DNA from: a virus
Strand: one strand, 5' to 3'
DNA length: 64,000 bases
IMG/VR virus record: IMGVR_UViG_3300029876_000390
Shown here: piece by piece, positions 16,764 through 31,997 of the stretch
Layout of the letters: each line of letters opens with the position of its first letter
Numbering within the stretch: position 1 is the stretch's first letter
Translations under genes and position numbers: made by a program
The notes under the pieces: generated by a model
The model's database searches: none
What the model was told of the DNA's origin: nothing
The model's input: only the letters and a program-made list of their open reading frames with translations

Positions 16764-17831
16764 ATGAGTAAGATCATCACTTGTGAACAGGTCAGCAATG
16801 GTCATCCTGATAAGATCTGTGACCAGATCGCAGATGCTATTGTGACCGACATTCTTCAGCATGACAAGAACGCCCGTGTGGCAATCGAGTGTCTGCTGAA
16901 AAAGAGCCAGCTTTTTATTGCCGGCGAGGTCACCACCGATTACCGGCCAAACTACAACCAGATCGTCCACGATGTGTTCAACCGCATCGGCGCCGAAAAG
17001 CTGGGCTGGAACCTGACAGAGCTTCTCCGAATCGGCATTCTGGTGGACAAGCAGTCCCCGGATATTGCGCTGGGTGTGGACAAGGGCGGTGCCGGTGACC
17101 AGGGCATCATGTATGGCTATGCCACCAACGAGACGGCAGAGCAGATGCCCATTCCGTACATGGTCGCCACCAAGTTCCTGCAACTGCTGACGAACCATCC
17201 GTCTAAGATGTTCCGTGCAGATGCCAAGGCGCAGGTCAGCTACGATTACGACACCGGACGCATCACCACCTTCCTCTGCTCCGTGCAGCACAGCCCGGAT
17301 GTGGAGGTCAGCGACTTCCGGCACATCATCGAATCCATGATGGTGCTTGCCGCCTGCGAGTACGGACTGGACGGTGACTTTACGAAGCTGGTCAACCCGA
17401 CCGGCCGTTTCGTGCTGGGTGGTAGCTACGCCGACTGTGGTGTGACTGGCCGGAAGCTGGCATGCGATACCTACGGCGGCATCGGTCGCATGGGCGGCGG
17501 TGCTCTGAGCGGCAAAGATCCCACCAAGGTGGACCGTTCCGCTGCATACATGGCGAGGAAGATTGCCAAGGACATCGTGCAGGCGGGCTACGCAGACAAG
17601 TGCGAAGTCCAGCTGGCCTACGCCATCGGCGTGGTACAGCCAGTGGGTGTGGCAGTGGAGTGCTTCGGTACGGAGCACCAGTCCCTTGACTTCATCGAAG
17701 CCTACGTCCATGACAGCTACGACCTGACCCCGCAGGGTATCATCAAGCGGCTGGGACTGCTGGATGTAGATTACAACAAGGTCAGTGCCTACGGTCACTT
17801 CGGCAAGGCTGGTCTTCCGTGGGAGGACTGA
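16764..17831 (+). CDS. metK: S-adenosylmethionine synthetase (methionine adenosyltransferase).
   Basis: SNGHPDKICDQIADAIVTDIL (N-terminal MetK motif) and GGGALSGKDPTKVDRSAAYMARKIAK (MetK signature 2). RBS AGAGAGG before ATG. Confidence 0.85.
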   Translation: MSKIITCEQVSNGHPDKICDQIADAIVTDILQHDKNARVAIECLLKKSQLFIAGEVTTDYRPNYNQIVHDVFNRIGAEKLGWNLTELLRIGILVDKQSPDIALGVDKGGAGDQGIMYGYATNETAEQMPIPYMVATKFLQLLTNHPSKMFRADAKAQVSYDYDTGRITTFLCSVQHSPDVEVSDFRHIIESMMVLAACEYGLDGDFTKLVNPTGRFVLGGSYADCGVTGRKLACDTYGGIGRMGGGALSGKDPTKVDRSAAYMARKIAKDIVQAGYADKCEVQLAYAIGVVQPVGVAVECFGTEHQSLDFIEAYVHDSYDLTPQGIIKRLGLLDVDYNKVSAYGHFGKAGLPWED

Positions 17832-17834
17832 CCC

Positions 17835-18194
17835 ATGCCGTACAGACCAAAGACACCGTGCCATCACCCCGGCTGTCCGGAGCTGGTGGAAGCCGGCCGG
17901 CTCTACTGTGAGAAGCACCTGCCTCTCCACCCAGAAGCCACCCGGCCAGCAGCAAAGCGTGGATACAACAGACGTTGGCAGAAAGCCAGGAAGTCGTATC
18001 TCGAAGCCCATCCGCTGTGTGTGCAGTGTGCCAAGCAGGGTAAGTATGTCCGGGCAACGGTCGTGGATCACATCGTTCCGCATCGTGGTGACCAGAAACT
18101 TTTCTGGGACCAAAATAATTGGCAGGCTCTCTGCAAGAACTGTCACGATAAGAAGACGCTGACCGAAGACATCAACCCAACCTACACCTACTGA
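17835..18194 (+). CDS. HNH endonuclease.
   Basis: CxxC...H...N...H pattern: CVQCAKQGKYVRATVVDHIVPHRGDQKLFWDQNNWQALCKNCHDKKT. Confidence 0.8.
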   Translation: MPYRPKTPCHHPGCPELVEAGRLYCEKHLPLHPEATRPAAKRGYNRRWQKARKSYLEAHPLCVQCAKQGKYVRATVVDHIVPHRGDQKLFWDQNNWQALCKNCHDKKTLTEDINPTYTY

Positions 18195-18594: not shown

Positions 18595-18894
18595 ATGGAA
18601 GATTACACGGCTGAGATGATCAAGGACATGGCTTTTTCGTTCTGCCCTCAGTGCGGTACAGCCATTGTACCGAATCATAAAGGCAGGCCGAGAAAGTTCT
18701 GCTCACCAGAATGCCGGTCAAGATGGAACAACACCCATCCAAAGCCGGAAAACTGGAGTACAGTGCGGTCAAAGATCTGTCCGGTGTGCGGCAGGGAGTT
18801 TTCCTACCGGCATCAGTACGGGTTGGAACGAAAATATTGCAGCCGGGCTTGTGCCAACCGGGGCAGAAAAAAGGAGGCGGACAGGAATGAGTGA
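18595..18894 (+). CDS. Zinc-ribbon protein, hypothetical.
   Basis: Four CxxC pairs (CPQCG, CSPEC, CPVCG, CSRAC); RBS GAGGTGAGGGTAG before ATG. Confidence 0.5.
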   Translation: MEDYTAEMIKDMAFSFCPQCGTAIVPNHKGRPRKFCSPECRSRWNNTHPKPENWSTVRSKICPVCGREFSYRHQYGLERKYCSRACANRGRKKEADRNE

Positions 18895-19129: not shown

Positions 19130-20401
19130 ATGAAAGCGACTGCTGAACTGAAGATGCTGCCGGTGTCCGTACTCAAGCCGGCCGCATACAATCCCCGGAA
19201 AAAGCTGAAGCCGGGGGATAAAGAGTACGAGAAGATCAAGAACTCCATCACGGAGTTCGGTTTCGCAGATCCTTTGGTGGTCAATGCCGACATGACGATC
19301 ATCGGTGGTCACCAGAGACTGACCGTAGCGATGGAGCTGGGATACACCGAAGTGCCTTGTGCGGTGGTGGACATCGACAAGACCAGGGAGAAAGCCCTGA
19401 ACATCGCACTCAACAAGATCACGGGTGCATGGGATGATTCTCTGCTGGCTGACCTGCTCAAGGACATCGAAGATTCCAACTTCGACCTCGGTAAGACAGG
19501 CTTTGACCCGCCTGAGATCGAGACGCTGTTCAACAAGGTCCACAGCAAAGAGGTCAAGGAAGATGACTTCGATGTGGAATCGGAGCTGAAGCAGCCGTGC
19601 TTCTCCAAAGAGGGCGACCTCTGGCATCTGGGTAAGCACATCGTTCTGTGCGGCGATTCCACCAAGCCAGAATGCTACGATACCCTGATGGACGGCACCA
19701 AGGCCAATCTGGTTCTTTCCGATCCCCCTTATAACGTGGATGTGGAAGAAACGGCTGGCAAGATCCTGAATGACAACATGGGCGATTCGGAATTCTACCA
19801 GTTCCTGCTGGCAGCGTTCCAGCAGATGCACGGGCATCTGGCGGATGACGGCTCCATCTATATCTTCCATGCAGATACGGAAGGGCTGAACTTTAGAAAG
19901 GCATTCAAGGATGCAGGGTTCTACCTGTCCGGGTGCTGTATCTGGAAGAAGAATGCTCTGGTGCTGGGACGCAGTCCATACCAGTGGCAGCACGAGCCGT
20001 GTCTTTACGGCTGGAAGCAGAAGGGGAAACACCAGTGGTATTCCGACCGGAAGCAGACGACCATCTGGGAGTATGACCGGCCGAAGTCCAACAAGGACCA
20101 TCCGACCATGAAGCCCATCGGCCTGATGAGCTATCCGATCCGAAATTCCACCATGACCAACGGCATCGTCCTCGATCCGTTCCTTGGCAGCGGTTCTACC
20201 CTGATCGCCTGCGAAGAAACCGACCGTGTGTGCCGAGGCATCGAGCTGGACCCGAAGTTCGTGGATGTGATCGTGAAGCGTTATATCGAACACAGCGAGG
20301 GTCACTACGATGATGTGTATGTCATCCGTGACAGTCAGAAGCTGAAGTTCGAGGAAGTGGCGACCTTCGAGCCGGAAAGGGAGGTCGCTGATGGAGAATA
20401 A
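19130..20401 (+). CDS. ParB-like nuclease domain fused to DNA methyltransferase (N6-adenine / N4-cytosine class, DPPY motif).
   Basis: ParB N-domain motif IIGGHQRL; methylase motif IV LVLSDPPYNV and AdoMet-binding region LDPFLGSGST. Confidence 0.8.
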   Translation: MKATAELKMLPVSVLKPAAYNPRKKLKPGDKEYEKIKNSITEFGFADPLVVNADMTIIGGHQRLTVAMELGYTEVPCAVVDIDKTREKALNIALNKITGAWDDSLLADLLKDIEDSNFDLGKTGFDPPEIETLFNKVHSKEVKEDDFDVESELKQPCFSKEGDLWHLGKHIVLCGDSTKPECYDTLMDGTKANLVLSDPPYNVDVEETAGKILNDNMGDSEFYQFLLAAFQQMHGHLADDGSIYIFHADTEGLNFRKAFKDAGFYLSGCCIWKKNALVLGRSPYQWQHEPCLYGWKQKGKHQWYSDRKQTTIWEYDRPKSNKDHPTMKPIGLMSYPIRNSTMTNGIVLDPFLGSGSTLIACEETDRVCRGIELDPKFVDVIVKRYIEHSEGHYDDVYVIRDSQKLKFEEVATFEPEREVADGE

Positions 20402-22520
20402 ACAGCTGACCCTCGGCAGCCTCTTTGATGGCTCCGGGGGTTTTCCATTGGGCGGGCTTTTGACCGGGCAGATCACTCCGGTGTGGAGCAGTGAGATCGA
20501 GCCGTTTGCCATCCGGGTCACGACCAAGCGTCTGCCGCAGGTGAAGCATTATGGAGATGTGTCTACTATCAGCGGTGCAGACCTACCTCCTGTAGACATC
20601 ATCACTTTTGGCAGTCCCTGTCAGGATATGTCCATCGCGGGTAAGCGGGACGGTCTGGATGGTTCACGGTCCAGCCTGTTTTACGAAGCAATCCGAATCG
20701 TGAAGGAAATGAGGTGTAAGACCAATGGAGAAAAACCAAGATTTATCGTGTGGGAGAATGTGCCAGGGGCCTTCTCCTCAAACAAAGGACAGGACTTCAA
20801 AGCAGTCCTCGAAGCCGTCATCAGTGTTAAAGAACCGTCCGCCTCGGTGCCTGCGCCTGAGAAGAAAGGATGGCCTGACGCTGACTACTACGTGGGAGAC
20901 GGATGGAGCGTCGCGTATCGAGTTTTTGATGCACAATGGTGGGGCGTTCCCCAAAGAAGAAAACGTATCTACCTTGTCGCAGATTTTGCAGACCAGAGTG
21001 CCCCAAAGGTATTATTTGAGTCCGAAGGCATGTCTCGGTATTCTGCGGAGGGCTTCCGTGCGTGGCAAAGAGCTGCCGCCGTTGCTGAAAGCGGCGCTGG
21101 AGAGACAGGCTGCAGTGGAGCAGGAGGACGGCTCTGTCTGAACGATCAGGGCGGAGAGAGGATGGATGTGACGGAAGAGGTGACAGCCACCCTCCGTGCG
21201 GAGGCACATCATCCGCCGTGTGTTATGGAAGCCGCTGGTTTCTGTACCGAGCATTCCGCAAATGCCAGAAGCATTGGATACGAAGAGGAACGGTCACCGA
21301 CCCTCCGGGCTGGTGTTGTGCCTGCTGCCATCGCACTGGAAAATCATCCTGCTGACAGCCGGGTGAAGATTTCCGAGGATGGTAAGGTGCAGACACTGAC
21401 AAGTCGGTGCGGTACGGGCGGCGGTAATGTCCCGATGGTCATGGACGCTGTTGAAAATTCAGTGGAAAGCCCGGTGAAAGAAGTTGAAAACTCTCCGGCG
21501 GTCACATTGAAGATCCGTTCCGGGTGTGAAGGCGGTGGCAAGGGCGCTATCTGGCAGGAAGAAAAGTCAGCTACCCTCGGCTGCAACAACGACCAGACAC
21601 TGTTCGTTCCAAAATGCTACGGTGTCTGCTCTAAAGCCAGCCACTCCATGATGTCCGATAATCCGTATAGCGGCTTCTATGAAGCGGAGACCTCCCGGAC
21701 ACTAGACCGCAGTGGTGGAGATCCGACCTGCAATCAGGGCGGTATCTGCGTGGTAGAGCCGATCGCCTTTACCCGGAACCAGAGGGATGAAGTCCGGGAT
21801 CTGGGAGAGAAGTCAGCGGCACTTGCAGCAGAGCCGGGGATGAAGCAGCAGACCTTCGTCCTGCAGGGCAACATGATCGGCCGCAAGGATGAGAACGGTC
21901 CGCAGGGGGATGGCGTCAATGAGGATGTCTGCTTTACACTGGATGCCACTGACCGCCATGCAGTCTGCGCACCGGAGGATGTGTATGCCATGACCACCGG
22001 CTCCTATATGCAGGTGGCAAAAGAAGTCGCACCGACTCTGATGGCGCGGGATTACAAAGACCCGACCACCATCGCACCGGCACCGCATCTGAACGAGGGT
22101 GTTATGGGAACGGTGGCAACTGGGGCGCATCCCAGCGGCTTCAATGGGCAGGATGCTTTCAATGACCGTCTGGTCATCGACAACCCGGAAGCGCAGCCGA
22201 CACCTGTGACCTATACCGTCCGCCGTTTGACACCGACCGAGTGTGCCAGACTGCAAGGATTCCCGGACTGGTGGTGCAGAGATCTCGGAACGGAAAACCC
22301 GACCGAAGAAGAGCTGGCATTCTGGGCAGATGTGTTTGAAACACACCGCAAGATCGTGACCCATGCCAAGAAGCCGAAGACGGAGAAGCAGATCCGGAAA
22401 TGGCTGGCTGACCCGTATACGGATTCGGCAGAGTACCGTATCTGGGGCAACGGCATATGCTTAGCCAACGCATTTTTTGTTCTGGCCGGCATTGCATGGT
22501 GCGCAGGTCTGGAAGAATAA
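20391..22520 (+). CDS. DNA (cytosine-5)-methyltransferase with a long variable / target-recognition region.
   Basis: Motif I LFDGSGGF, motif IV GSPCQDMS, motif VI FIVWENVPG, C-terminal motifs after a roughly 350-aa variable region. Confidence 0.8.
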   Translation: MENKQLTLGSLFDGSGGFPLGGLLTGQITPVWSSEIEPFAIRVTTKRLPQVKHYGDVSTISGADLPPVDIITFGSPCQDMSIAGKRDGLDGSRSSLFYEAIRIVKEMRCKTNGEKPRFIVWENVPGAFSSNKGQDFKAVLEAVISVKEPSASVPAPEKKGWPDADYYVGDGWSVAYRVFDAQWWGVPQRRKRIYLVADFADQSAPKVLFESEGMSRYSAEGFRAWQRAAAVAESGAGETGCSGAGGRLCLNDQGGERMDVTEEVTATLRAEAHHPPCVMEAAGFCTEHSANARSIGYEEERSPTLRAGVVPAAIALENHPADSRVKISEDGKVQTLTSRCGTGGGNVPMVMDAVENSVESPVKEVENSPAVTLKIRSGCEGGGKGAIWQEEKSATLGCNNDQTLFVPKCYGVCSKASHSMMSDNPYSGFYEAETSRTLDRSGGDPTCNQGGICVVEPIAFTRNQRDEVRDLGEKSAALAAEPGMKQQTFVLQGNMIGRKDENGPQGDGVNEDVCFTLDATDRHAVCAPEDVYAMTTGSYMQVAKEVAPTLMARDYKDPTTIAPAPHLNEGVMGTVATGAHPSGFNGQDAFNDRLVIDNPEAQPTPVTYTVRRLTPTECARLQGFPDWWCRDLGTENPTEEELAFWADVFETHRKIVTHAKKPKTEKQIRKWLADPYTDSAEYRIWGNGICLANAFFVLAGIAWCAGLEE

Positions 22521-22741
22521 ACTGGCCCGCTATATTACTAGGTAGAAAGCGACCTGGTGATATGGTGGGCTTACATATTGGTCCTATTTACACAACAGAT
22601 TCTGCAGTTCCTTGTGTAATTGGTCGAACATGAAGAATATCGGGAAATGGCCTTGCTATTTGACCGGTTCAGAGTGATATATGTGCTACCGAAAAAAACA
22701 TCGGGACGTACAAAGACAAAAAACGAAAGGGGCAATGAATT

Positions 22742-23833
22742 ATGTTGAAATTTGAATTGAACATAGCAGACCGTAAGACACTTGCAAATCGCATGGAGGA
22801 GCTGATGGGCATCCATCCTTACTACACCAGAGCACCGCTGTACGCATATGACATCGGCAACTACACCATCGACCGGGACGGCAATCTTCTGGTCGAGCCG
22901 GAGAATGCAGATGCCGAGCTGCTGACGACTCTGTTGAATGAGGGGTTGATCCGCGGCGGCGAGAGCATTGAGAGCACGGATGACCAGCCGGAAAACACAG
23001 AGCCGACTGAAAATTTGGCAGATGAGCCTGTGGCCGAAGAGGAGCCGGATGATACGGCAGAGGATGGTGCAACAGAGGATGAGCCGGATGCAGAGGAATC
23101 GGAAAGCGAAGAGCAGCCGGAAGCAGAAGACCAGCCGGAAGAAGTACCGCTGGATCTGGAACTTGCCTTCCCAACCAGCCAGCATAACGGAGTGAGCCTT
23201 CGCAATCTGGTCAACCTCATCTACAGCCGGGGCCGACTCATCAGCAAGGCAACGGGCGGGCACTTCCATGTGGAAACCGACCTGGTCGAAACACTGCGGG
23301 ATGACAGCTGCACCTATACGGTGGCAAACTTCATCGAGGCACTTAAGGGTTACGAAGCACAGTGTGGAACTGCGATGGAAGGTCTGGTGATCACAGAAGA
23401 AAAGGTTTCCTTCACAGGATTCCCGACGGCTTCCGACTATGATCACCTGACGGCTTTTGGTCACCTTGCCATCCTGATGAACCAGCAGGCGATCAGCCAG
23501 AAGCGCATCCAGGCAAAGGATGTCAACGATGAGAATGAGAAATACGCACTCCGCACATGGCTTCTGCGGCTGGGCATGAATGGCCCGGACTTCAAGGAAA
23601 CCCGCAAGATTCTCATGGAGAACCTTTCCGGCCATGCGGCTTTCCGCACGGATGAGGAAGCACAGAAGTTTCTTGCAAGGGAAAAGGCAAAACGGGATGC
23701 CCTGAAAGCCGCGAAACTGGCGGCACAGAACGGCGATCCTGCCACAGGGGAAACGGTCGAACAGGAAGAAAACCAGCCGACACAGCCCGACTGTGGGGCA
23801 GACACGGCGCAGATGCTGGAGGCGGGAGCGTAA
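22742..23833 (+). CDS. Hypothetical protein with an acidic linker and a C-terminal module shared with the downstream amidoligase.
   Basis: C-terminal NDENEKYALRTWLLRLGMNGPDFKETRKILMENLSGHAAFR aligns with amidoligase C-terminal TDNEKYAMRCWMLRLGFIGDEFATAREILLRNMEGNASWR. Confidence 0.55.
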   Translation: MLKFELNIADRKTLANRMEELMGIHPYYTRAPLYAYDIGNYTIDRDGNLLVEPENADAELLTTLLNEGLIRGGESIESTDDQPENTEPTENLADEPVAEEEPDDTAEDGATEDEPDAEESESEEQPEAEDQPEEVPLDLELAFPTSQHNGVSLRNLVNLIYSRGRLISKATGGHFHVETDLVETLRDDSCTYTVANFIEALKGYEAQCGTAMEGLVITEEKVSFTGFPTASDYDHLTAFGHLAILMNQQAISQKRIQAKDVNDENEKYALRTWLLRLGMNGPDFKETRKILMENLSGHAAFRTDEEAQKFLAREKAKRDALKAAKLAAQNGDPATGETVEQEENQPTQPDCGADTAQMLEAGA

Positions 23834-23989
23834 GCTCCCAAGCCCCCAATGGGGGCCGGAAAATATGCGAGACCCTCTTCCATTGTAACGATATTAACTC
23901 TGAAAATGTACATTATCAAGCGGATAAACTGCAGAAATGTACACGATCATTCTGCCTTATATTTGTCGAATATATGTTCTTTTATATCC

Positions 23990-24018
23990 TTGCTATTATC
24001 CGCACCTGACGGTAATAT
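23990..24018 (+). promoter_or_regulatory. Conserved promoter cassette copy 1 (TTGCTA-N17-TAATAT) upstream of the amidoligase.
   Basis: ccTTGCTAttatccgcacctgacggTAATATgcacataccgaaaggg; same architecture and leader as six other copies. Confidence 0.55.
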
Positions 24019-24065
24019 GCACATACCGAAAGGGAAAACAAGGAAAAAACAAAGGAGAACATACC

Positions 24066-25004
24066 ATGAACGATAAAACAAGAGAGCAGATTGAAGCCAT
24101 GAAGAACCAGACCATCGGAGTTGAGATCGAGATGAACAACATCACCAGAGAAAAAGCGGCAAGAAAGGTTGCCGAGTACTTCGGAACCAGAGCATGGAAC
24201 GCAGCCAGCGAGTACGGATATTACAGCTGGGCTTGCAAGGACCAGCAGGGCAGGGTTTGGAAATTCCAGAGGGACGTGAGCATCTACGGACCGGACGCAG
24301 AAAAATGCGAACTGGTCACCCCGATCCTCACCTACGACGACATCGAAACCTTGCAGGAAATCATCCGACTGCTCCGCAAGGCAGGCGCAAAGAGTAGCCC
24401 AAGCCGCGGATGCGGGGTCCACATCCACATCGGCAAAGGCGACCACACCGCAAAGACCATCCGCAACCTTGTGAACATCATGGCGGCGCACGAACAGCAG
24501 ATAGGCAGAGCCATCCGGATTGACGCAGGGCGCACCGGACATTATTGCCAGGTGGTCAACCACCGCTTCCTCGACCGGCTGAACCGCGAGAAGCCGACCA
24601 CCATGCGCAAGCTGGAAGACATCTGGTACGAAGGCAACGGTTCCAGCTGGGAAAACCGGAATGCCCACTACAATTCAAGCCGGTACCACATGCTGAACCT
24701 CCATGCCACCTTTACAAAAGGGACCATTGAATTCCGCCTTTTCCAATTCGCAGACCCAGCGGACGGAAAGCGCAACGGGCTGCACGCCGGTGAGATGAAA
24801 GCCTACATCCAGCTTTGCCTCGCAATGAGCCAGCTTGCCAAGATGGTCAGAACGGCAAGTCCGAAGCCCCAGCAGACCGACAACGAAAAGTACGCGATGC
24901 GGTGCTGGATGCTGAGGCTGGGATTCATCGGGGATGAATTCGCAACGGCAAGGGAGATCCTTCTGCGGAACATGGAGGGCAACGCATCCTGGCGGAACAA
25001 ATAA
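24066..25004 (+). CDS. Amidoligase_2 family enzyme (glutamine-synthetase-like amidoligase fold).
   Basis: About 310 aa; segments IGVEIEMNN, CGVHIHIGKGDHTAKTIRNLVNIMAAHEQQIGRAI and HYNSSRYHMLNLHATFTKGTIEFRLFQ are consistent with the putative amidoligase family. Strong RBS AAAGGAGAACATACC before ATG. Confidence 0.65.
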   Translation: MNDKTREQIEAMKNQTIGVEIEMNNITREKAARKVAEYFGTRAWNAASEYGYYSWACKDQQGRVWKFQRDVSIYGPDAEKCELVTPILTYDDIETLQEIIRLLRKAGAKSSPSRGCGVHIHIGKGDHTAKTIRNLVNIMAAHEQQIGRAIRIDAGRTGHYCQVVNHRFLDRLNREKPTTMRKLEDIWYEGNGSSWENRNAHYNSSRYHMLNLHATFTKGTIEFRLFQFADPADGKRNGLHAGEMKAYIQLCLAMSQLAKMVRTASPKPQQTDNEKYAMRCWMLRLGFIGDEFATAREILLRNMEGNASWRNK

Positions 25005-25071
25005 GCCGGGATGCACGGGCACCTTTTGGGCGGGCAACCGCCCTTGAGGTGGTAGAAGGAGGTGCAGGTTT

Positions 25072-25308
25072 ATGAAAAGCACGTTAAAAAATGAAAACAC
25101 ACCGGGAGGCAGGACCTTTAAGGTGACCATCACCGAGACCTACCAGAGAACGGTGACCATTTATGAATCTGAGATGAAAGAGCCGACCGTGGAGGAAGCC
25201 CAGCGTGTGGCAGAGGACTGGTGGCGGAACAGCCAGATCGAGCTTGGGACGGAGGATTTCCAGGGAGTGGAGTTCACTGGCAGGGAGGACGGTGAGGCAG
25301 ATGCTTGA
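25072..25308 (+). CDS. Small hypothetical protein between the amidoligase and the cyclotransferases.
   Basis: 78-aa ORF, RBS GGAGGTGCAGGTTT before ATG; its stop overlaps the start of the next gene. Confidence 0.45.
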   Translation: MKSTLKNENTPGGRTFKVTITETYQRTVTIYESEMKEPTVEEAQRVAEDWWRNSQIELGTEDFQGVEFTGREDGEADA

Positions 25309-25822
25309 ACTGATCAGCCGAAGCCCATCCAGATATTACCTTGCCTACGGAAGCAACCTTGACATGGAGCGGATGGGAAAGAGATGCCCTTACGCTGTGG
25401 TGGTCGGCACGACCGAGATCATGGGCTACCGGCTCCTGTTCAAAAAGAGCAAGACCGGCTGCTATGCCACCATCGAGCAGGATGCCAATGAAAGCGTACC
25501 AGCAGTGGTCTGGAAACTCTCGGAATACGATGAGCTCCTGCTGGACCGGTACGAGGGCTGCCCAAGATACTACTACAAGAAACAGTTTCAGCTTCCGGTC
25601 TGGAACCTGAACGGGAACCGCATGAAAAAGGCAAAGCCCTGCATCGCTTATGTGATGCACGAGGACCGGCGGCTTGGCTGCCCGGATGCCGAGTATTTTG
25701 AACTGCTGCGCGGCGGATACAGCGACTGGGAATTTCCGCTGGACACACTGAAGCGTGGACTGGCAGCTAGTATCGGAAGGGCGGAAGCCATCCGGTATCT
25801 GAAGAAGCAGCAGATGATGTAA
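25301..25822 (+). CDS. Gamma-glutamyl cyclotransferase-like protein (AIG2 / GGCT fold), copy 1.
   Basis: YYLAYGSNLDMERM N-terminal motif and LDRYEGCPRYYYK core typical of the AIG2/BtrG/GGCT family. Confidence 0.7.
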   Translation: MLELISRSPSRYYLAYGSNLDMERMGKRCPYAVVVGTTEIMGYRLLFKKSKTGCYATIEQDANESVPAVVWKLSEYDELLLDRYEGCPRYYYKKQFQLPVWNLNGNRMKKAKPCIAYVMHEDRRLGCPDAEYFELLRGGYSDWEFPLDTLKRGLAASIGRAEAIRYLKKQQMM

Positions 25823-25952
25823 GAGTACACGATCAAAAGCAAAAAACATTGTGCAGTATATGATGCTTATCGGCCTTGATAAATCAGGGCAGAAGAGTGA
25901 TATATACCATACCGCCAGACAAGAGCGGAGAAAACCGAAGGGAGAGATTCAA

Positions 25953-26432
25953 ATGAAGAACAAGAAATATTACATCGCCTACGGCAGCAACCTGTCGGTG
26001 GAGCAGATGGCATACCGGTGTCCGGATGCAAAAATTGCAGGACAGGCGGTGCTTGCAGGCTGGGAGCTTTTGTTCCGCGGCTGCGCCACCATCGCACCGA
26101 ACCCGAAGAAGAACACGCCGGTTCTGGTGTGGGAGATCTCGGAAAGGGATGAAGGAAACCTCGACCTCTATGAGGGCTACCCGAACTACTACCGCAAGGA
26201 AGACCTGAACATCGAACTGCTCCGGGAAGGAGCGGAACCGGAGATGGTGACCGCAATGGTCTACATCATGGAGAACGACTTCGGACACCGCGCACCGAGC
26301 CGGTATTACTACAAAGTCCTGCATGACGGCTACAAGGCATTCCACTTCCCGATGCACATCCTCGAAGGTGCGCTGAAGGAATGCATGGATAAGGATGCCG
26401 CCCAGCGGATGATCGAGGAGGTGCAGGCATGA
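25953..26432 (+). CDS. Gamma-glutamyl cyclotransferase-like protein (AIG2 / GGCT fold), copy 2 (paralog).
   Basis: YYIAYGSNLSVEQM and LDLYEGYPNYYRK motifs; paralogous to 25301-25822. Confidence 0.7.
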   Translation: MKNKKYYIAYGSNLSVEQMAYRCPDAKIAGQAVLAGWELLFRGCATIAPNPKKNTPVLVWEISERDEGNLDLYEGYPNYYRKEDLNIELLREGAEPEMVTAMVYIMENDFGHRAPSRYYYKVLHDGYKAFHFPMHILEGALKECMDKDAAQRMIEEVQA

Positions 26433-26896
26433 ATTTCGCAGATCAGAAAATGGTCAAGAAGTTGAGAAAAGAGTTTCCGGTCGGATGCCGGATCGTCCTC
26501 GATGAGATGGATGATAGGCAGGCACCGCCCATCGGAACGCAGGGAACCTGCAACTGGGTCGATGATGCCGGAAACATCTTAGTGAGCTGGGACACCGGAA
26601 GCCATCTGAACGTTGCCTACGGCGCGGACAGTTGCCACCGTGTGGCAACGGATGCCGAGGTCAAGGTGTCGCTCGACCGCCTTGGTAAAACGCGACAGAC
26701 CGGCCCACGTTGCCCCAGGTGCGGAGCAAAGCCCGACTGCTATGACCATCAGCAGCAGGCACTCAGCCGAAGGGCGGCCATCCAGATCTGCAACCGCTGC
26801 GGAACGGAGGAAGCATTAGAGGACATTGCATGGGGCGGACAGCAGAAGATGCATCTTGCAGACTGGGCAATCGTGAAAGGAGCCTGGGTCGAATGA
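26429..26896 (+). CDS. DUF4314-like protein with C-terminal zinc-ribbon-like cysteines.
   Basis: GTQGTCNWVDDAGNILVSWDTGSHLNVAYGADS matches the DUF4314 pattern (V.DdG.I.V.WD.G); CPRCG...CNRCG pairs follow. Confidence 0.5.
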   Translation: MNFADQKMVKKLRKEFPVGCRIVLDEMDDRQAPPIGTQGTCNWVDDAGNILVSWDTGSHLNVAYGADSCHRVATDAEVKVSLDRLGKTRQTGPRCPRCGAKPDCYDHQQQALSRRAAIQICNRCGTEEALEDIAWGGQQKMHLADWAIVKGAWVE

Positions 26897-27264
26897 GGGT
26901 TCTCCTGATCAAACCGATGGAGCATCCGCAGGTGGTGGACATTGAAAACTCCCTGAAAGAGTTCTACCGCATCCTCGACTGCGACTGTATCACAGCCACC
27001 TACCCGTGGGAAGAACGAGCCGCCCTGGTCACCGATGACAACGGGCTGTTCACTGAGAAGTCATTCAGCAGATACATCCCGGAACTGGAGCAGCCCATCA
27101 AGGGGAACTTCTTCATCTGCGGATTGGGCGAGGAAGATTTCGCAGAGCTGCCCCAGGACCTCATCCAGAAATTCAGGGAACGCTTCTGGGTGCCGGAGGC
27201 ATTCGTCAGCATGTTCGGGCAGCTGGCAGTCATCCAGATGGATGACGGAACGAAGCCGGAATAA
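26893..27264 (+). CDS. DUF3846-like protein.
   Basis: ATGA-coupled to the upstream DUF4314-like gene, a pairing common in Clostridia; about 124 aa. Confidence 0.45.
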   Translation: MRVLLIKPMEHPQVVDIENSLKEFYRILDCDCITATYPWEERAALVTDDNGLFTEKSFSRYIPELEQPIKGNFFICGLGEEDFAELPQDLIQKFRERFWVPEAFVSMFGQLAVIQMDDGTKPE

Positions 27265-27335
27265 GATACCACAATCAGAAAAATACCCTCTCGGCCAGAA
27301 AAGACCGGGAGGGCTTGGTTTAACAGGAGGAGCCT

Positions 27336-27527
27336 ATGGGACACAGAAAGATGCCTGCTTATGGCGAGAGGGAACACGGCGGCAGATACATTCTGGATAA
27401 ATACGAATGGTCGAGAAATCACTGCAAGGCGGTGACCATCCGCAGATGGAAAAGGGACCTGAAAAAGAAAGCCAGAGCGCATAACCGCAGAGTGATGCAT
27501 CAGGCAATACATGGCGAAGCCGATTAG
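27336..27527 (+). CDS. Small basic hypothetical protein.
   Basis: RBS AACAGGAGGAGCCT before ATG; 63 aa, Arg/Lys-rich. Confidence 0.4.
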   Translation: MGHRKMPAYGEREHGGRYILDKYEWSRNHCKAVTIRRWKRDLKKKARAHNRRVMHQAIHGEAD

Positions 27528-27726
27528 ACGGAAAATGGGGGCCTCAAAAGAATGAGAACCCCCTTCCAGTTTACTGTATATTACCTCTGGAAAGCAACGA
27601 TAGCAAGGAGAACCGCCGCCATAATGTACACAAACATCTGGCAGCGGTTTTGTGTATCATACCAAACCAAAACCGGGGATACGAGGCAGAGCCCCAGCCT
27701 CTGCTGGGGAGCCTCTGGGGGATTCC

Positions 27727-27978
27727 TTAGAAGAAATCCCTCATGCTCATGCCGACCTCGTTCAGTCGTTCCTCCATGCTGTGGTAGTGCCAATCCTCTT
27801 CCTCTTCTTCGGCTTCTTCCTCAAGCTCCTCTGGGAAAGGGTCGTGCCGCCATCCGGCTTTCTGGTATTCTTCTTCTCGGATGTCGTTGCGGTCGTAAAT
27901 GTCCAGCTCGTATTCTTCTTCAAGCTCTGCGATGCGGCTTTCGATTGCGGTTTCAACTTCTGTAATGGTCTTTTTCAT
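27727..27978 (-). CDS. Small highly acidic protein (possible DNA mimic); the only minus-strand gene in this island.
   Basis: Minus-strand RBS GGAGG 8 nt upstream of ATG 27978; sequence contains EELEEEAEEEEEDWHYH. Confidence 0.5.
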   Translation of the reverse strand: MKKTITEVETAIESRIAELEEEYELDIYDRNDIREEEYQKAGWRHDPFPEELEEEAEEEEEDWHYHSMEERLNEVGMSMRDFF

Positions 27979-28127
27979 GGTTTTTGTCCTCCGTTTTTGG
28001 TTTGGTTTTCTTTGCTTTCGTTGTGTGTATAATGCCGCAGAAACACATATATAGCAAGTCAATCAGGGGTCATATATGTACCAAACATGAGGGGCGAAGA
28101 TCGTTGATAATATGACGTTTTATGGCC

Positions 28128-28156
28128 TTGCTATCACAGGGCGGTGACGGTAATAT
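28128..28156 (+). promoter_or_regulatory. Conserved promoter cassette copy 2.
   Basis: ccTTGCTAtcacagggcggtgacggTAATATacagctac. Confidence 0.55.
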
Positions 28157-28187
28157 ACAGCTACAAAAAGCAAAGGAGGACAGCAAA

Positions 28188-28364
28188 ATGGCTGATTGGA
28201 GAACATGGAAAAAAGGGAGAAAGACAACATGGCACTGGAACGAATTCGATGGAAGCGGAAGCCGGGAAGGAATCATCACCGAGGTTCATGAAGACCATGC
28301 GATTATGGAAGCAGACGGCATGCACCTTTGGATCGACGATGACACGGCAGAGATGTTCAGCTAA
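28188..28364 (+). CDS. Small hypothetical protein (59 aa).
   Basis: RBS AAAGGAGGACAGCAAA before ATG; followed by the perfect hairpin CGGGGAG-ggaaaa-CTCCCCG (28369-28388). Confidence 0.5.
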   Translation: MADWRTWKKGRKTTWHWNEFDGSGSREGIITEVHEDHAIMEADGMHLWIDDDTAEMFS

Positions 28365-28444
28365 GAAAACGGGGAGGGAAAACTCCCCGGATAAACACAT
28401 AAATCCTCCAGATCAGGGGGCAGATGATCGTGTACTTTAGCCGC

Positions 28445-28473
28445 TTGATAGTGTCCGGCAGTGACGGTAATAT
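28445..28473 (+). promoter_or_regulatory. Conserved promoter cassette copy 3, with the upstream GATCGTGTACTTTAGCCGC box.
   Basis: gatcgtgtactttagccgcTTGATAgtgtccggcagtgacggTAATATacagctacc. Confidence 0.55.
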
Positions 28474-28503
28474 ACAGCTACCAAAACGAAAGGGGCAAAG
28501 AAC

Positions 28504-28710
28504 ATGGAACGCTACACTTACGAGATCACCTTTACACGGCTGGATGGACAGCCGGATGAAATCCAGCAGCACACCAGCGAGGAGCTGGCAAGAGAATGCT
28601 TCCGGCCTTTCGATGAGCCGGACAGTGCAGAGATGTACAGCAAAATCGAACTTAGCCGCCACGACTGGGAGGCAGCCACGGATGAGATTCTGGAAACGAT
28701 GACATTCTGA
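28504..28710 (+). CDS. Small hypothetical protein (68 aa).
   Basis: RBS AAAGGGGCAAAGAAC before ATG. Confidence 0.5.
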   Translation: MERYTYEITFTRLDGQPDEIQQHTSEELARECFRPFDEPDSAEMYSKIELSRHDWEAATDEILETMTF

Positions 28711-28725
28711 GAGGAGAACAAAAAC

Positions 28726-28986
28726 ATGACTTACACAAAAATCAACCTTTACCTTGCGAACGGAATCCCAGAGGCACTCAGCAACCTCTGGTACGGAAGC
28801 GACAGCGCGGTGGTCGAGATCAGGGATGCCGTTGAGGATGCGAAGAACGGCAAGGACCTTCTGAACCGCATCCAGAAGATGAAGCTCCTGCGGAAATTCA
28901 CCCTCGACAGGGAGAACGAAAGTCGCATCCGCTTCAAGGGAACGGACTGCTGGGGCAACGTAAGCTACCTCGAAATCATTCGCTAA
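28726..28986 (+). CDS. Small hypothetical protein (86 aa), co-transcribed with the upstream ORF.
   Basis: RBS GAGGAGAACAAAAAC before ATG; followed by the terminator GGCTGG-aaatga-CCAGCC-TTTT (29010-29031). Confidence 0.5.
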   Translation: MTYTKINLYLANGIPEALSNLWYGSDSAVVEIRDAVEDAKNGKDLLNRIQKMKLLRKFTLDRENESRIRFKGTDCWGNVSYLEIIR

Positions 28987-29115
28987 AGGCAAGGCCGACA
29001 GGCGCAAGGGGCTGGAAATGACCAGCCTTTTGCTCGTGTCTGTCTTCCGAAAGCTGGCATGAAAAGCACATAAATATGACAATTACAGGATTGAATGATC
29101 GTGTAGTTTAGCCGC

Positions 29116-29144
29116 TTGATAGTACTCCGGGGTGACGGTAATAT
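29116..29144 (+). promoter_or_regulatory. Conserved promoter cassette copy 4.
   Basis: gatcgtgtagtttagccgcTTGATAgtactccggggtgacggTAATATacagtcaccgaaagggg. Confidence 0.55.
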
Positions 29145-29188
29145 ACAGTCACCGAAAGGGGAAAACAACAAAAACGGAGGATACGACA

Positions 29189-29638
29189 ATGACGAAGAAC
29201 GAAGACCGCATCAATAAACTTTTCAAGGAACTGGTACCGGATACGGGCAAGGCAGACAGCCTCGCAGGGGAGCTGGTAAGGGCAATGAGCCGCATCGGAT
29301 ACCGCTTTTACAACGACGGCGACCAGCTGGGCATCGGCTACGGCAAGGAAACCTGCAACCCTGCAGGGCGGTTCCTTGGAGCCAAGGGCAACGACAAAAT
29401 CGCAAAGCTGACTGCAGATGCCTGGGCAGTCTACAGTGAGGAAGCCTACGAAAAGGTTCTGGACATCCTTTGCGGAGCGGTTGCCGACTATGTTGAGCAG
29501 AACCCAGACCTTAGAAACCAGCCGACCGAAGATATGTGGGACTTCAAGGATGAGGAAGAAGACCAGGATGACAGCTGGGACGAGGAAGAAGATGACTGGG
29601 ACGAAGAGGAAGATTACGAGGACGAAGAAAACTACTAA
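29189..29638 (+). CDS. Hypothetical protein with extremely acidic C-terminal tail (DEEEDQDDSWDEEEDDWDEEEDYEDEENY); candidate DNA-mimic / anti-restriction protein.
   Basis: RBS AAAACGGAGGATACGACA before ATG; 150 aa; the last 30 residues are about 80% Asp/Glu. Confidence 0.55.
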   Translation: MTKNEDRINKLFKELVPDTGKADSLAGELVRAMSRIGYRFYNDGDQLGIGYGKETCNPAGRFLGAKGNDKIAKLTADAWAVYSEEAYEKVLDILCGAVADYVEQNPDLRNQPTEDMWDFKDEEEDQDDSWDEEEDDWDEEEDYEDEENY

Positions 29639-29734
29639 GCCAGAGAAACAAATGGGGCTTGCCGGAAACGGCGGCCCTTTTCTTCTGCTGTAATACGCAC
29701 AGTTCCGGGTGGCTATCTTTGTGTAGTATAGCCG

Positions 29735-29763
29735 CTTGATAGTGTGTGACATAGACGGTAATA
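29735..29763 (+). promoter_or_regulatory. Conserved promoter cassette copy 5.
   Basis: gtgtagtatagccgcTTGATAgtgtgtgacatagacggTAATATgcacataccgaaacgg. Confidence 0.55.
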
Positions 29764-29808
29764 TGCACATACCGAAACGGAAAACCAAGAAAAACGGAGG
29801 AAACCACC

Positions 29809-30000
29809 ATGAAGAAGAACATTACCAAGGAAGAAGAAAAATCCCTGCTGGAGATCGCCAAGCGCCTGATGGCAGCGGTAGACAGTCGGGGCGACCTCGA
29901 AGCCCGCGACAATGACAGCGAGGACTTCATTGAGGTTCCGGTCTGGGGCATCCAGAAAGCAATGGAGGAAGCCTACCTGCTGGGACGGATGAACAGATAA
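29809..30000 (+). CDS. Small hypothetical protein (63 aa).
   Basis: RBS AAAACGGAGGAAACCACC before ATG. Confidence 0.5.
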   Translation: MKKNITKEEEKSLLEIAKRLMAAVDSRGDLEARDNDSEDFIEVPVWGIQKAMEEAYLLGRMNR

Positions 30001-30123
30001 ACCGACAGCCCCCGACACAGCCCCACACAGGGGCTTGTGCCACGGGTGGCAAAACAATCCGAAGGAACCGACAACGCCCCAGACAGGGGCAGATGTGGCG
30101 GCGTGGAGGAAGGGAAAGCACAC

Positions 30124-30330
30124 ATGGAAGAACGGATGATGGATGTCATCGTGGAAATCTACAACCACATGGATGACAGCGATAAGGATGCCTTCACGCT
30201 GGAGGCTGCCGAGGATATGGTGGAAGACCAGATCAGGATGGACAAGGAAGCTGGACGGGAACCGCTGGCATATGACCCGCAGTTCTTCTACGATACCATT
30301 GTGGAACTCATGAAGCAGGACGCAGAGTGA
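30124..30330 (+). CDS. Small acidic hypothetical protein (68 aa).
   Basis: Preceded by hairpins GCCCC-acaca-GGGGC and GCCCC-agaca-GGGGC; start ATG 30124 after GGAGGAAGGGAAAG. Confidence 0.4.
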   Translation: MEERMMDVIVEIYNHMDDSDKDAFTLEAAEDMVEDQIRMDKEAGREPLAYDPQFFYDTIVELMKQDAE

Positions 30331-30379
30331 CGTACATTCTGCCTGGTATTCCGGGCAGAAGATCGTGTACTTTAGCCGC

Positions 30380-30408
30380 TTGCTATCCTTTGCACCTGAC
30401 GGTAATAT
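30380..30408 (+). promoter_or_regulatory. Conserved promoter cassette copy 6.
   Basis: gatcgtgtactttagccgcTTGCTAtcctttgcacctgacggTAATATgcacataccgaaaggg (the spacer is identical to copy 1). Confidence 0.55.
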
Positions 30409-30465
30409 GCACATACCGAAAGGGGGAGGCCCCAAGGGAAAAACGAAAACACGGAGGATTTTATC

Positions 30466-30750
30466 ATGAAAAAGCATTTGATCGACTTTCCAGAAAACAA
30501 CATCAGCATAGAGAGTTTCTACGACCGACTCAGACCTTGCTACGACAGCATCATGCAGTTCGGTGACCGGGTTTTGGTTGCCCAGATGAACTGGAATGGC
30601 ATGCTGGAGGGAGCGGTATACGGATTTGTCGAAGACCCAGAGGAAGGCTGGTCACCGATTGAGTGCCGACTGGAGCTTCTGAAGATTTCCGATGAGACCT
30701 ACACGGATGCCGGTCACGCGATCGAGTGGTGCATCAAGAACGCATACTGA
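30466..30750 (+). CDS. Small hypothetical protein (94 aa).
   Basis: RBS AACACGGAGGATTTTATC before ATG. Confidence 0.5.
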   Translation: MKKHLIDFPENNISIESFYDRLRPCYDSIMQFGDRVLVAQMNWNGMLEGAVYGFVEDPEEGWSPIECRLELLKISDETYTDAGHAIEWCIKNAY

Positions 30751-30861
30751 AAAGGGCAGAGCTCCTTCGGGGGCTTTTGCTCGTAGTGGCGGATTTCTCC
30801 GGCGTGTAAATACACATAAATCCGACAAAAAGAGGTGTGTATGATCGTGCAGCATAGCCGC

Positions 30862-30890
30862 TTGCTATGTCCGGGCGGTGACGGTAATAT
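30862..30890 (+). promoter_or_regulatory. Conserved promoter cassette copy 7.
   Basis: gatcgtgcagcatagccgcTTGCTAtgtccgggcggtgacggTAATATacagtcac. Confidence 0.55.
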
Positions 30891-31326: not shown

Positions 31327-31517
31327 CAGCACCCAAAAGGTACACGCCCCGAAAAGGGGCTGTGCCTCGTATCCGATGTGTTTTATATAAAGTTGTCAAA
31401 ATGGGAAACTATTTACTATTCATACGAAAAAGTTTCCCGTTTGGGAAAATGATATTTTAAGGACTTCTTTGGAGGTCCTTTTTCTTTACCCATTTTTGCA
31501 GAAAGGAGGAGATGCCA

Positions 31518-31997
31518 ATGGCTACCAGAGGCAGAAAACCAAAGCCGACCGCCATGAAGGAGCTGGAAGGCAATCCGGGCAAGCATCCGCTGAACACCAG
31601 CGAACCGAAGCCTAACAAGAAAGCACCGGCCTGTCCGAAGTGGCTGGAGCCGGAAGCAAAGAAAGAGTGGCGCAGACTTGCAAAACAGATGGAAGCCATC
31701 GGCATCCTGACCGAAGTGGATATGGCGGCCTTTGCCGGTTACTGTCAGGCATATGCCCGATGGAAGGAGGCAGAGGAGTTCATCACCCAGCACGGCACCA
31801 TTGTCAAGACCCCGTCCGGCTACTGGCAGCAGGTGCCGCAGGTGTCCATCGCACAGACCTATCTGAAGATTATGAACAAGTTCGCAGAGCAGTTCGGCCT
31901 GACCCCGTCCTCCCGAAGCCGCATCATTGCTTCGGACGGCGGTCCTGCGGATGCTACCGATGAGATGGAAAATCTGCTGGGAGGAGGTGGAAGCTGA
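31518..31997 (+). CDS. terS: Terminase small subunit, P27 family.
   Basis: KELEGNPGKHPLN motif and Lys/Arg-rich N-terminus typical of P27-family terS; RBS AAAGGAGG 8 nt before ATG 31518. Confidence 0.8.
   Translation: MATRGRKPKPTAMKELEGNPGKHPLNTSEPKPNKKAPACPKWLEPEAKKEWRRLAKQMEAIGILTEVDMAAFAGYCQAYARWKEAEEFITQHGTIVKTPSGYWQQVPQVSIAQTYLKIMNKFAEQFGLTPSSRSRIIASDGGPADATDEMENLLGGGGS

Follow-up and report, generated by a model that had tools for sequence, protein, structure and literature searches.

Gene organization of the locus

The window analyzed here is a 64,000-nucleotide stretch of viral DNA (IMG/VR record IMGVR_UViG_3300029876_000390) from a temperate phage of Candidatus Heliusvirales type that infects gut Clostridia; the taxonomy of its relatives places the related elements in Ca. 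Heliusvirales. A forward-strand operon begins with gene B (24066–25004), an Amidoligase_2 carboxylate-amine ligase of 312 residues with a pI of 9.35. It continues with C (25072–25308), a 78-residue DpnD/PcfM-like accessory protein (PF14207, 1.1e-7), and with two GGCT/AIG2-like cyclotransferases, D (25301–25822, 173 residues, pI 9.0) and E (25953–26432, 159 residues). These are followed by F (26429–26896), a DUF4314 protein with a C-terminal zinc ribbon (PF14192, 6.4e-27), by the DUF3846 protein G (26893–27264; PF12957, 6e-23), and lastly by a basic 63-residue ORF (27336–27527) that is conserved in related loci and gave no family match in the profile scan. The ORFs described in an earlier note on this DNA are all present, but that note ended the module at 26432, whereas the operon runs on to about 27527 and thereby gains the DUF4314, DUF3846 and 63-residue ORFs. 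Its description of the genes as tightly coupled suits the C/D, E/F and F/G overlaps but not the gaps of 67 nt between B and C and of 130 nt between D and E. Gene F is a conserved backbone gene that also occurs without B, as in Javan191, which has F and lacks both B and a GGCT.

Upstream on the same strand lies gene A (22742–23833), a 363-residue amidoligase paralogue in which an acidic insert (residues about 77–135) is disordered; its net charge is −45 and its pI 4.3. The module that A had been said to share with the ligase is real, but it is not limited to the C-terminus, the homology spanning at least residues 137–306. All of the ExE, HxH and ExR residues are lost in A, and phages without the ligase also carry it. 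Its sequence marks A as a catalytically dead paralogue that has a promoter to itself and takes no part in the catalytic cycle. The earlier suggestion of a docking partner common to A and the ligase is unsupported, A being a dead paralogue that is also found without the ligase.

The conserved promoter cassette of the earlier note proved real. Where 0 copies of CTTGMTA-N17-TAATAT would be expected, the window has nine, all of them inside 23.9–30.9 kb. One forward copy, TTGCTA-17-TAATAT (23989–24018, + strand), sits 48 nt before the start codon of the ligase and would drive the B operon, with an RBS (GGAG) preceding the ATG at 24066. Two reverse-facing copies on the minus strand are convergent with gene A (23891–23920) and with the B operon (27578–27607). 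Sequence reading, repeat and alignment also place a degenerate forward copy at 22650–22700, upstream of gene A, in which TTGCTA ... GATATA ... ACCGAAA is followed by an RBS resembling that of the cassette at 28483–28502. The cassette is predicted to be a host-type (sigma-A-like) promoter.

Predicted activities of the ligase and the cyclotransferases

B matches the Pfam Amidoligase_2 profile PF12224 (E = 9.5e-56, 189.8 bits against a cut-off of 22) over positions 1–244 of 245, and phrog_2443, 'amidoligase enzyme', in PHROGs. The structure model of B (pLDDT 96.6) has the GS/GCL catalytic fold, and its closest structures are glutamate-cysteine ligases and glutamine synthetases, which have in common that they activate the γ-carboxyl group of glutamate; no solved structure was found for the family of B itself. 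The ExE, HxH and ExR motifs and R206 show little or no variation across 64 representatives of 36–65% identity, among which E20, E22, E82, H119, H121, R206, E222 and R224 are each invariant or at least 90% conserved. We take the three motifs to correspond to the metal- and phosphate-binding motifs of GS.

D and E both match the GGACT profile PF06094 (cut-off 22.8 bits), D with 1.5e-8 and 35.7 bits and E with 5.5e-12 and 46.7 bits, and E additionally matches AIG2_2, PF13772 (1.3e-6, 29.2 bits, cut-off 27). In PHROGs, both fall into phrog_2520, 'gamma-glutamyl cyclotransferase' (D 3.7e-36, E 1.2e-41). The matches to PF12224, PF06094 and PF13772, all above cut-off, bear out the amidoligase and GGCT assignments of the earlier note. 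D and E are indeed paralogues (35% identity, E = 2e-31) and contain both of the motifs that it quoted. Human GGCT (2pn7/3cry) aligns to E, including YGSNL and the position of the catalytic Glu98. Related loci yielded 80 D and 80 E ORFs, and only one of these, an E ORF without a YGSNL match, does not have both YGSN[LM] and LDx[YF]EG; D orthologues retain YGSNL and LDRYEG. Cyclization by GGCT requires the free α-amine of the glutamyl group. GGACT-type enzymes cleave γ-glutamyl-ε-lysine, the known substrate being the free isopeptide rather than protein-bound lysine.

By analogy to these relatives, B would be a Mg-ATP-dependent carboxylate-amine ligase of the glutamine-synthetase/glutamate-cysteine-ligase superfamily that turns the γ-carboxyl of L-glutamate into an activated acyl phosphate and then couples it to an amine, X, to give γ-glutamyl-X. 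In D or E, the free α-amine of the glutamyl group would then attack the γ-amide and release X and 5-oxoproline, such that B and D/E may constitute a write/erase cycle for the γ-glutamyl amide. The modeled proximity of B to glutamate-cysteine ligases and glutamine synthetases, together with its GGCT partners, argues for the γ-glutamyl ligation and removal chemistry proposed earlier. Were the two activities tightly coupled, the net reaction would be Glu + ATP → 5-oxoproline + ADP + Pi; such a cycle is futile and brings no evident selective benefit, which counts against this reading. As X we would first suspect an amine of low molecular weight, be it an amino acid or a polyamine, because the closest structural relatives of B, like the nearest solved relative of E, act on free small molecules, and because the pair is accompanied by no conserved tag or target protein.

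B and D are basic throughout, with a median pI of 9.07 for the 64 representatives and 9.4 for the loci. To us this seems atypical of small-molecule metabolic enzymes in the superfamily of B and may point to a macromolecular partner of polyanionic or acidic nature. B might then write, and D/E erase, a single γ-glutamyl group on a macromolecule, either a lysine of a host or phage protein or an amine tied to a polyanion such as nucleic acid, in the service of counter-defense or host take-over. GGACT-type chemistry on γ-glutamyl-ε-lysine fits this proposal, PF06094 being the best Pfam match of both D and E, as do the orphan methyltransferases nearby and the small acidic ORFs that follow strong promoters. 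Nevertheless, the closest structural neighbors of B are small-molecule ligases, the established substrate of GGACT is the free isopeptide, and the pair has no conserved encoded target across distant phages. We consider this explanation unlikely.

The fold of B is also that of Dop and PafA, and the combination of an enzyme, a dead paralogue (recalling PafA/Dop) and a small ORF after B brings pupylation to mind, with B ligating a C-terminal Glu of the 78-residue protein to lysines and A acting in the manner of Dop. However, glutamate-cysteine ligase and YbdK outscore both PafA and Dop, and A is without any catalytic residue and occurs without B. The C-termini of C vary (...REDGEADV, ...AEGGEVGD, ...ACELPQM) and have no terminal Glu/Gln motif, and C is missing from loci L059, L062–L072 and others. 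A glutamyl group linked within a peptide, having no free α-amine, could not be removed by GGCT. The absence of a conserved tag and the α-amine requirement of GGCT thus leave the peptide-tag option of the earlier note unsupported, and pupylation proper, for which both a conserved Gly-Gly-Glu/Gln C-terminus and a competent second paralogue are lacking, is disfavored as extremely improbable.

Conservation of the ligase–GGCT pairing

At least one GGCT lies within 3 kb downstream of B in 80 of 81 IMG/VR loci. The one exception is a truncated contig, and the pairing is therefore present in every evaluable locus. Genome loci at 39–41% identity (L109, L110, L113) have it as well. The two families are again found together in Bacillus phage 035JT001, in Arthrobacter phage Laroye and in LUZ24-like Pseudomonas phages, in agreement with the earlier expectation of a conserved gene neighborhood. 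Many loci have just one GGCT, which indicates that the minimal unit is B plus a single GGCT. No conserved candidate target is encoded alongside the pair across distant phages.

An uncoupled explanation would treat these genes as co-located auxiliary metabolic cargo for nitrogen or amino-acid metabolism, the GGCTs degrading host γ-glutamyl compounds for amino-acid salvage or for destruction of a host metabolite while B separately makes an amide. Published annotations class such genes as auxiliary metabolic genes (PMC10945688; PMC11318856), MetK is encoded nearby, and some amidoligase-bearing phages are without a GGCT, no such neighbor being detectable for the FP_Taranis and Porphyromonas phage amidoligases. 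Yet the adjacency is strict at 39–99% identity and is seen again in four unrelated phage groups; without a functional link between the enzymes this would be difficult to account for, and we regard the uncoupled explanation as distinctly unlikely.

Genomic surroundings

The module is embedded in an array of cassettes between the methyltransferases and terS. Upstream lie HNH (17835–18194), a ParB-N6 methyltransferase (19130–20401) and a C5 methyltransferase (20391–22520), and downstream terS/terL (31512–33622). The position between HNH and terS next to two methyltransferases is therefore as first described, except that MetK (16764–17831) is upstream of HNH rather than within this interval. The same kinds of phage genes (methyltransferases, HNH, terS and terL) flank the module in related loci, so it belongs to the phage and is not a host housekeeping operon. 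Both methyltransferases of the window are orphan, and small acidic ORFs behind strong promoters are found among the neighbors of the module. The profile scan of the ORFs showed cargo domains of mobile-element type (DpnD/PcfM, DUF4314, DUF3846, DUF6900 and Nmad4), the Nmad4 protein being encoded within the same cargo array as the amidoligase module. The module is dispensable cargo of the phage and can be lost, as in the decay variants L106 and L112. Plasmid occurrence is rare, amounting to 10 records, all non-mobilizable.

The placement directly after two DNA methyltransferases raises the alternative that the enzymes handle a protecting group or an intermediate in a pathway of DNA base or nucleotide modification. 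One precedent would be butirosin biosynthesis, in which BtrJ is reportedly an ATP-dependent γ-glutamyl ligase and BtrG an AIG2/GGCT-like enzyme that removes the group; we take BtrJ to be an ATP-grasp rather than a GS-like enzyme and its context to be ACP-bound biosynthesis, which is absent here. γ-Glutamyl-polyamine intermediates feeding base hypermodification would be another. Nmad4 in the same array, a nucleoside 2-deoxyribosyltransferase-like gene (2071–2685) and the basic pI of B and D fit such chemistry, and viral contigs with thymidine-hypermodification genes can also contain Pfam matches to amidoligase and GATase (PMC8989533). In the ORFs scanned (1.2–33.6 kb), however, 5-hmdU kinase, aGPT-Pplase, dUMP hydroxymethylase and TET/JBP are absent, and in the Bacillus and Arthrobacter phages the pair is located away from methyltransferases. 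This alternative appears quite improbable.

Proteins A–G have neither a transmembrane segment nor a signal peptide, which indicates a cytoplasmic location. This speaks against modification of cytoplasmic cell-envelope precursors, for example the glutamate of the peptidoglycan stem peptide, as a route to receptor change and superinfection exclusion, as does the absence of Mur-ligase or envelope genes nearby. Moreover, stem peptides do not offer the L-glutamyl group with a free N-terminus on which GGCT depends. On the other side, the phage is temperate and a lysogen might make use of its host-type promoters, and PMC11318856 credits the idea to Iyer et al. 2009. We judge it very unlikely.

Relation to known systems

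The amidoligase–GGCT association is, as we understand it, also stated in the Pfam family text. It is already annotated in PHROGs, and genome papers on LUZ24-like, Arthrobacter and Clostridium prophage genomes have noted it. According to PMC11318856 and PMC10945688, Amidoligase_2–AIG2/GGCT neighborhoods on phages and mobile elements were predicted by Iyer, Abhiman, Burroughs and Aravind in 2009 (Mol Biosyst 5:1636). The novelty suggested in the earlier note was thus overstated, although its statement that the phage-encoded version is uncharacterized agrees with the literature surveyed, in which no experimental work on it was found. As far as those two accounts describe them, the predicted neighborhoods resemble the present one in having the same two families adjacent in a Firmicutes phage with the same ligate-and-cleave logic, and differ in that the module here is minimal (a ligase with one or two GGCTs) and resides in Heliusvirales gut phages. 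A dead ligase paralogue and a promoter-cassette array around such a module were not found in the literature surveyed.

In the LUZ24-like Pseudomonas phages UFV-P2, tf, PaP3 and LUZ24, an early-region cluster comprises COOH-NH2_lig, Amidoligase_2, a class II GATase, ATP-grasp and AIG2/GGCT (PMC3890496). It likewise brings Amidoligase_2 and AIG2/GGCT together on the early-gene strand, but it has three more enzymes, none of which is in the window, and its hosts are Proteobacteria rather than Clostridia. Laroye gp97–99 encode a GGCT, an amidoligase and a class II glutamine amidotransferase; the adjacent GGCT and Amidoligase_2 are shared, whereas the GATase is extra, B is only 23% identical, and the genes lie at the right end of the genome beside a helicase and an exonuclease. 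Glutamate-cysteine ligase/YbdK (GCS2) and γ-glutamylcyclotransferase constitute two steps of the Meister γ-glutamyl cycle. Compared with GCS2, B is unusually basic and only 11–12% identical, and the other members of that cycle (glutathione synthetase, GGT and 5-oxoprolinase) have no match among the scanned ORFs of the window, including A, C, F, G and the small ORFs. In contrast to PafA/Dop/Pup pupylation, the present system has no Pup-like tag, its paralogue is dead, and its GGCT partners are incompatible with removal of a peptide tag.

Possible role in the phage

The module is a further member of an already predicted and annotated but uncharacterized pairing. Among the scanned ORFs, PADLOC gave zero matches to defense systems, NCBIfam gave zero matches pointing to an anti-defense or take-over role, and neither an ArdA/Ocr-type match nor a validated anti-defense gene is present; the sole argument for such a role is genomic location. 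This location-derived role is counted against the small-amine cycle, as are the basic character of B and D, the amidoligase phages without a GGCT, and the decay variants. We nevertheless favor that cycle tentatively, at somewhat below an even chance when taken as a whole: an ATP-driven writing and erasing of γ-glutamyl amines, transcribed from a host-type cassette and carried as phage cargo. The phage with this module is a widespread human-gut prophage, in which the cycle may serve host take-over or counter-defense.

Gene organization of the region

ORF calling places the region's genes on the + strand, with identities taken from Pfam and PHROG scans. A replication module (DUF2800 nuclease, PolA, SNF2 helicase, MazF-like protein and D5/NrS-1-type primase) is followed by MetK (16764-17831), HNH (17835-18194), a zinc-ribbon protein (18595-18894), a ParB-N6 DNA methyltransferase (19130-20401) and a C5 methyltransferase of 709 aa (20391-22520). 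Next come protein A (363 aa, 22742-23833), the Amidoligase_2 ligase B (24066-25004, E 9.5e-56), the DpnD/PcfM-like protein C (25072-25308), the GGACT/AIG2 cyclotransferases D (25301-25822) and E (25953-26432), the DUF4314 and zinc-ribbon protein F (26429-26896), the DUF3846 protein G (26893-27264) and a 63-aa ORF that ends the B unit. A run of small, mostly acidic ORFs, including DUF6900 and Nmad4 proteins, lies between this ORF and terS and terL (31512-33622). Given this gene order, the coordinates in the earlier note and its assignment of B to Amidoligase_2 and of D and E to GGACT/AIG2 are correct.

Several of the small ORFs behind the promoter cassettes described below are very acidic (pI 4.0-4.3; 29186-29638, 27727-28062 on the - strand, 28504-28710 and 30070-30330), one of them with an Asp/Glu-rich tail. 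They gave no family matches and could be proteins of the DNA-mimic type. The ORF at 27727-28062 (111 aa) would be the sole reverse gene of the region. To the left of the replication module lies a nucleoside 2-deoxyribosyltransferase-like protein (2071-2685; phrog_355, 8e-24).

The ligase and its linkage to cyclotransferases

The conserved columns of B are G18, E20, E22, R63, D70, S72, E82, H119, H121, R156, R206, N211, H213, E222 and R224, which we take to represent the ExE, HxH and ExR metal and phosphate motifs of glutamine synthetase. The protein is basic, with a pI of 9.35 (median 9.07 for 64 representatives). No PDB entry matched the ligase family by sequence or by profile search, and the many viral models in BFVD labelled 'amidoligase enzyme' carry no specific function. 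Longer Amidoligase_2 representatives revealed no informative domain fusion, DUF6262 being the only partner found. An intron or intein in B, suspected from matches of 1.3 kb at some loci, was rejected, as the extra length consists of the C-terminal part of A together with B; these loci gave no Rfam match.

A GGCT gene lies within 3 kb downstream of B in 80 of the 81 loci with a full-length B, the sole exception being a contig that ends 123 bp past B. Among the genome loci the pairing holds down to 39-41% identity. The pairing of ligase and cyclotransferase genes recurs in three other phage groups. It occurs in Bacillus subtilis phage 035JT001 (genes 41 and 45) and in Arthrobacter phage Laroye (gp97-99, with a class II GATase), and LUZ24-like Pseudomonas phages have an early module with Amidoligase_2, AIG2, COOH-NH2_lig, GATase and ATP-grasp enzymes (PMC3890496). 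No GGCT was detectable near the ligase in FP_Taranis and Porphyromonas phages. Linkage of C, F and G to the pair is not strict; C is missing from many loci, and Streptococcus phage Javan191 has F and an A-like protein, with B and GGCT both absent.

D and E are 35% identical. E aligns with human GGCT over its full length; YGSNL falls in register, as does the catalytic Glu, which is the residue that 3cry carries in mutated form, and both motifs are kept in all recovered GGCT ORFs but one. Two copies are present in 60 loci; since about twenty carry a single copy, one GGCT suffices and the duplication is lineage-specific.

Protein A is a pseudoenzyme

The earlier note had described a C-terminal module shared by A and B. 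The two proteins are indeed homologous, and the homology is wider than such a module: profile-profile comparison matched A137-306 to B116-312 (probability 99.8%, E 2.8e-30), and in a joint alignment the N-terminal strand-helix regions are also collinear. All catalytic positions are replaced or deleted in A: ExE has become K-F-E/K, HxH has become E-L-A, ExR has become S-F-T, and the segments with R63, D70, E82, R206 and H213 are absent. Because no catalytic position survives, A is a pseudoenzyme, one that belongs to the conserved backbone of the region and is not an obligatory partner of B. An interaction between the highly acidic A and the basic B is conceivable from their composition.

Short, A-like dead amidoligase paralogues directly follow the two methyltransferases in Javan191 (locus L082, 4554-5237) and, as similar genes labelled 'virulence-related protein', in Streptococcus, Erysipelothrix and Gardnerella phages, all of them phages without an active amidoligase or GGCT. 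The existence of such paralogues indicates that the A-type pseudoenzyme has a function of its own.

Promoter cassettes

The core CTTGMTA-N17-TAATAT has nine exact matches in the 64 kb, against 0 expected, and all fall at 23.9-30.9 kb. Each belongs to a cassette of about 80 nt comprising promoter and RBS, and the array (23891-30890) is confined to the cargo region. Seven copies face forward (starts at 23989, 28127, 28444, 29115, 29735, 30379 and 30861), each 30-60 nt 5' of a start codon with a GGAG-type RBS. Two copies on the - strand (23920 to 23891 and 27607 to 27578) lie immediately 3' of A and of the 63-aa ORF, so that A on the one hand and B through the 63-aa ORF on the other are units bracketed by convergent cassettes. 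This arrangement may reflect antisense control or the recombination boundaries of moron-like units. A degenerate copy is found at 22650-22700. The hexamers are near the sigma-70/sigma-A consensus, which suggests transcription by host RNA polymerase. A sigma-factor-like protein encoded at 1234-2055, left of the replication module (several sigma-factor PHROGs, about 1e-13), could be relevant to these promoters.

Both A and the 63-aa ORF have, past their stop codons, a copy of a repeat some 40 nt long (AATGGGGGCC...CTTCCA; 23840-23887 and 27534-27573), which overlaps the reverse-cassette leaders. The copy after A includes a GC-rich palindrome at 23840-23856 (GCCCCCAATGGGGGC), which could work bidirectionally. 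The listed 80-aa ORF at 28122-28364 overlaps the cassette at 28127-28172; translation probably begins at the internal ATG at 28188, for a product of 58 aa.

Distribution of the element

Nucleotide and protein searches of a phage collection matched about 50 'NatCom/IMGVR/CHVD' genomes. The ones examined fall under Candidatus Heliusvirales in their classification and have the same gene order as the window. The Heliusvirales paper names MetK and methyltransferases as common genes and does not mention the amidoligase. Single-protein scans recovered 80 IMG/VR loci and 29 genome loci. The lineage is extremely common in metagenomes of the human gut: when ligase sequences are clustered at 90% identity, a single cluster has 3767 members, and the representative homologues number roughly 4600. 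Methyltransferases, HNH and terS/terL are present in every locus with enough flank, which places the module in a phage and not in a housekeeping operon of the host. A conjugative leading-region gene was also considered and ruled out, because the plasmid collection yielded only 10 records with a match, all non-mobilizable.

Near-identical prophages reside in the cultured isolates Clostridium fessum SNUG30386, Blautia faecis DFI.3.66 and Faecalibacterium intestinale CLA-AA-H281. In the prophage loci L087, L088 and L089, from isolates assigned to these three species and thereby to three genera and two families, B is 98-99% identical and the cargo array is the same; possible explanations are an exceptionally wide host range, a transfer in the recent past or contaminated assemblies. 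Decay variants also occur. In a Wujia chipingensis MAG (L106, 6621-11030) an insertion of about 3.4 kb splits the B gene, and in an Acetatifactor MAG (L112, about 6001-6315) a deletion leaves only B residues 208-312 beside the C5 methyltransferase, a remnant that matches the C5-MTase/Amidoligase_2 'fusion' protein P0002 of the protein database.

Possible function

Three observations point to the formation and cleavage of a gamma-glutamyl amide: the predicted fold of B, the family to which D and E belong, and the strict linkage of ligase and cyclotransferases. GGCT chemistry depends on a glutamyl group whose alpha-amine is free; should the product of B be the substrate of D and E, the acyl donor would therefore have to be free glutamate and not the C-terminus of a peptide. 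This requirement, along with the variable tails of C and its patchy presence, argues against the peptide tag offered as an option in the earlier note, and a Pup-like tag is disfavored. As the nearest relatives act on small molecules, our leading guess for the amine acceptor would be a small molecule. The basic pI of B and D would also fit a macromolecular target. In one such scheme, which we consider improbable, B would be the writer and the GGCTs the erasers of mono-gamma-glutamylation on a macromolecule, be it a host protein of defence or housekeeping or an amine associated with a polyanion. The highly acidic dead paralogue A would then be a decoy for the basic ligase, its adaptor or its regulator. 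We infer an anti-restriction role from the neighbourhood only. Proteins A-G have no transmembrane segments and no PADLOC matches, and NCBIfam gave nothing meaningful for them, its single match (A to sigma-54) lying far below threshold; the ORFs scanned yielded no hypermodification enzyme.

The primary prediction of amidoligase-GGCT systems is said to be that of Iyer et al. in 2009. Literature searches gave annotations and no biochemical or genetic characterisation, in line with the earlier view that no phage version has been characterised; nor did the literature or PDB sequence and profile searches yield an assay or a solved structure. In Clostridium clostridioforme prophages two 'amidoligase' ORFs and a GGCT are annotated (PMC11318856), which is the arrangement of A, B and GGCT. 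The amidoligase and GGCT genes of a Planctomycetes-associated phage were read as auxiliary metabolic genes (PMC10945688), LUZ24-like (PMC3890496) and Arthrobacter phages offer annotation only, and amidoligase and GATase matches lie near thymidine-hypermodification genes (PMC8989533). A paper on polyvalent proteins mentions none of the module's domains (PMC5512222).

The module belongs to a known kind that is uncharacterised, and it is a genuine and well-conserved example of that kind. New here are the recognition of A as a pseudoenzyme, the definition of a minimal core of two enzymes and the architecture of promoter cassettes. Amidoligase-GGCT modules span many unrelated phages, and the prediction has stood unexplained since 2009; being minimal, with two enzymes, the version in the window is a practical entry point to the substrate. 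A metabolite target would make this an unusual auxiliary metabolic module that spends ATP, and a defence component or macromolecule would mean new counter-defence chemistry. If the macromolecular writer/eraser scheme were true, it would be a new type of reversible modification in phage-host conflict, in a lineage that is among the most prevalent phages of the human gut.
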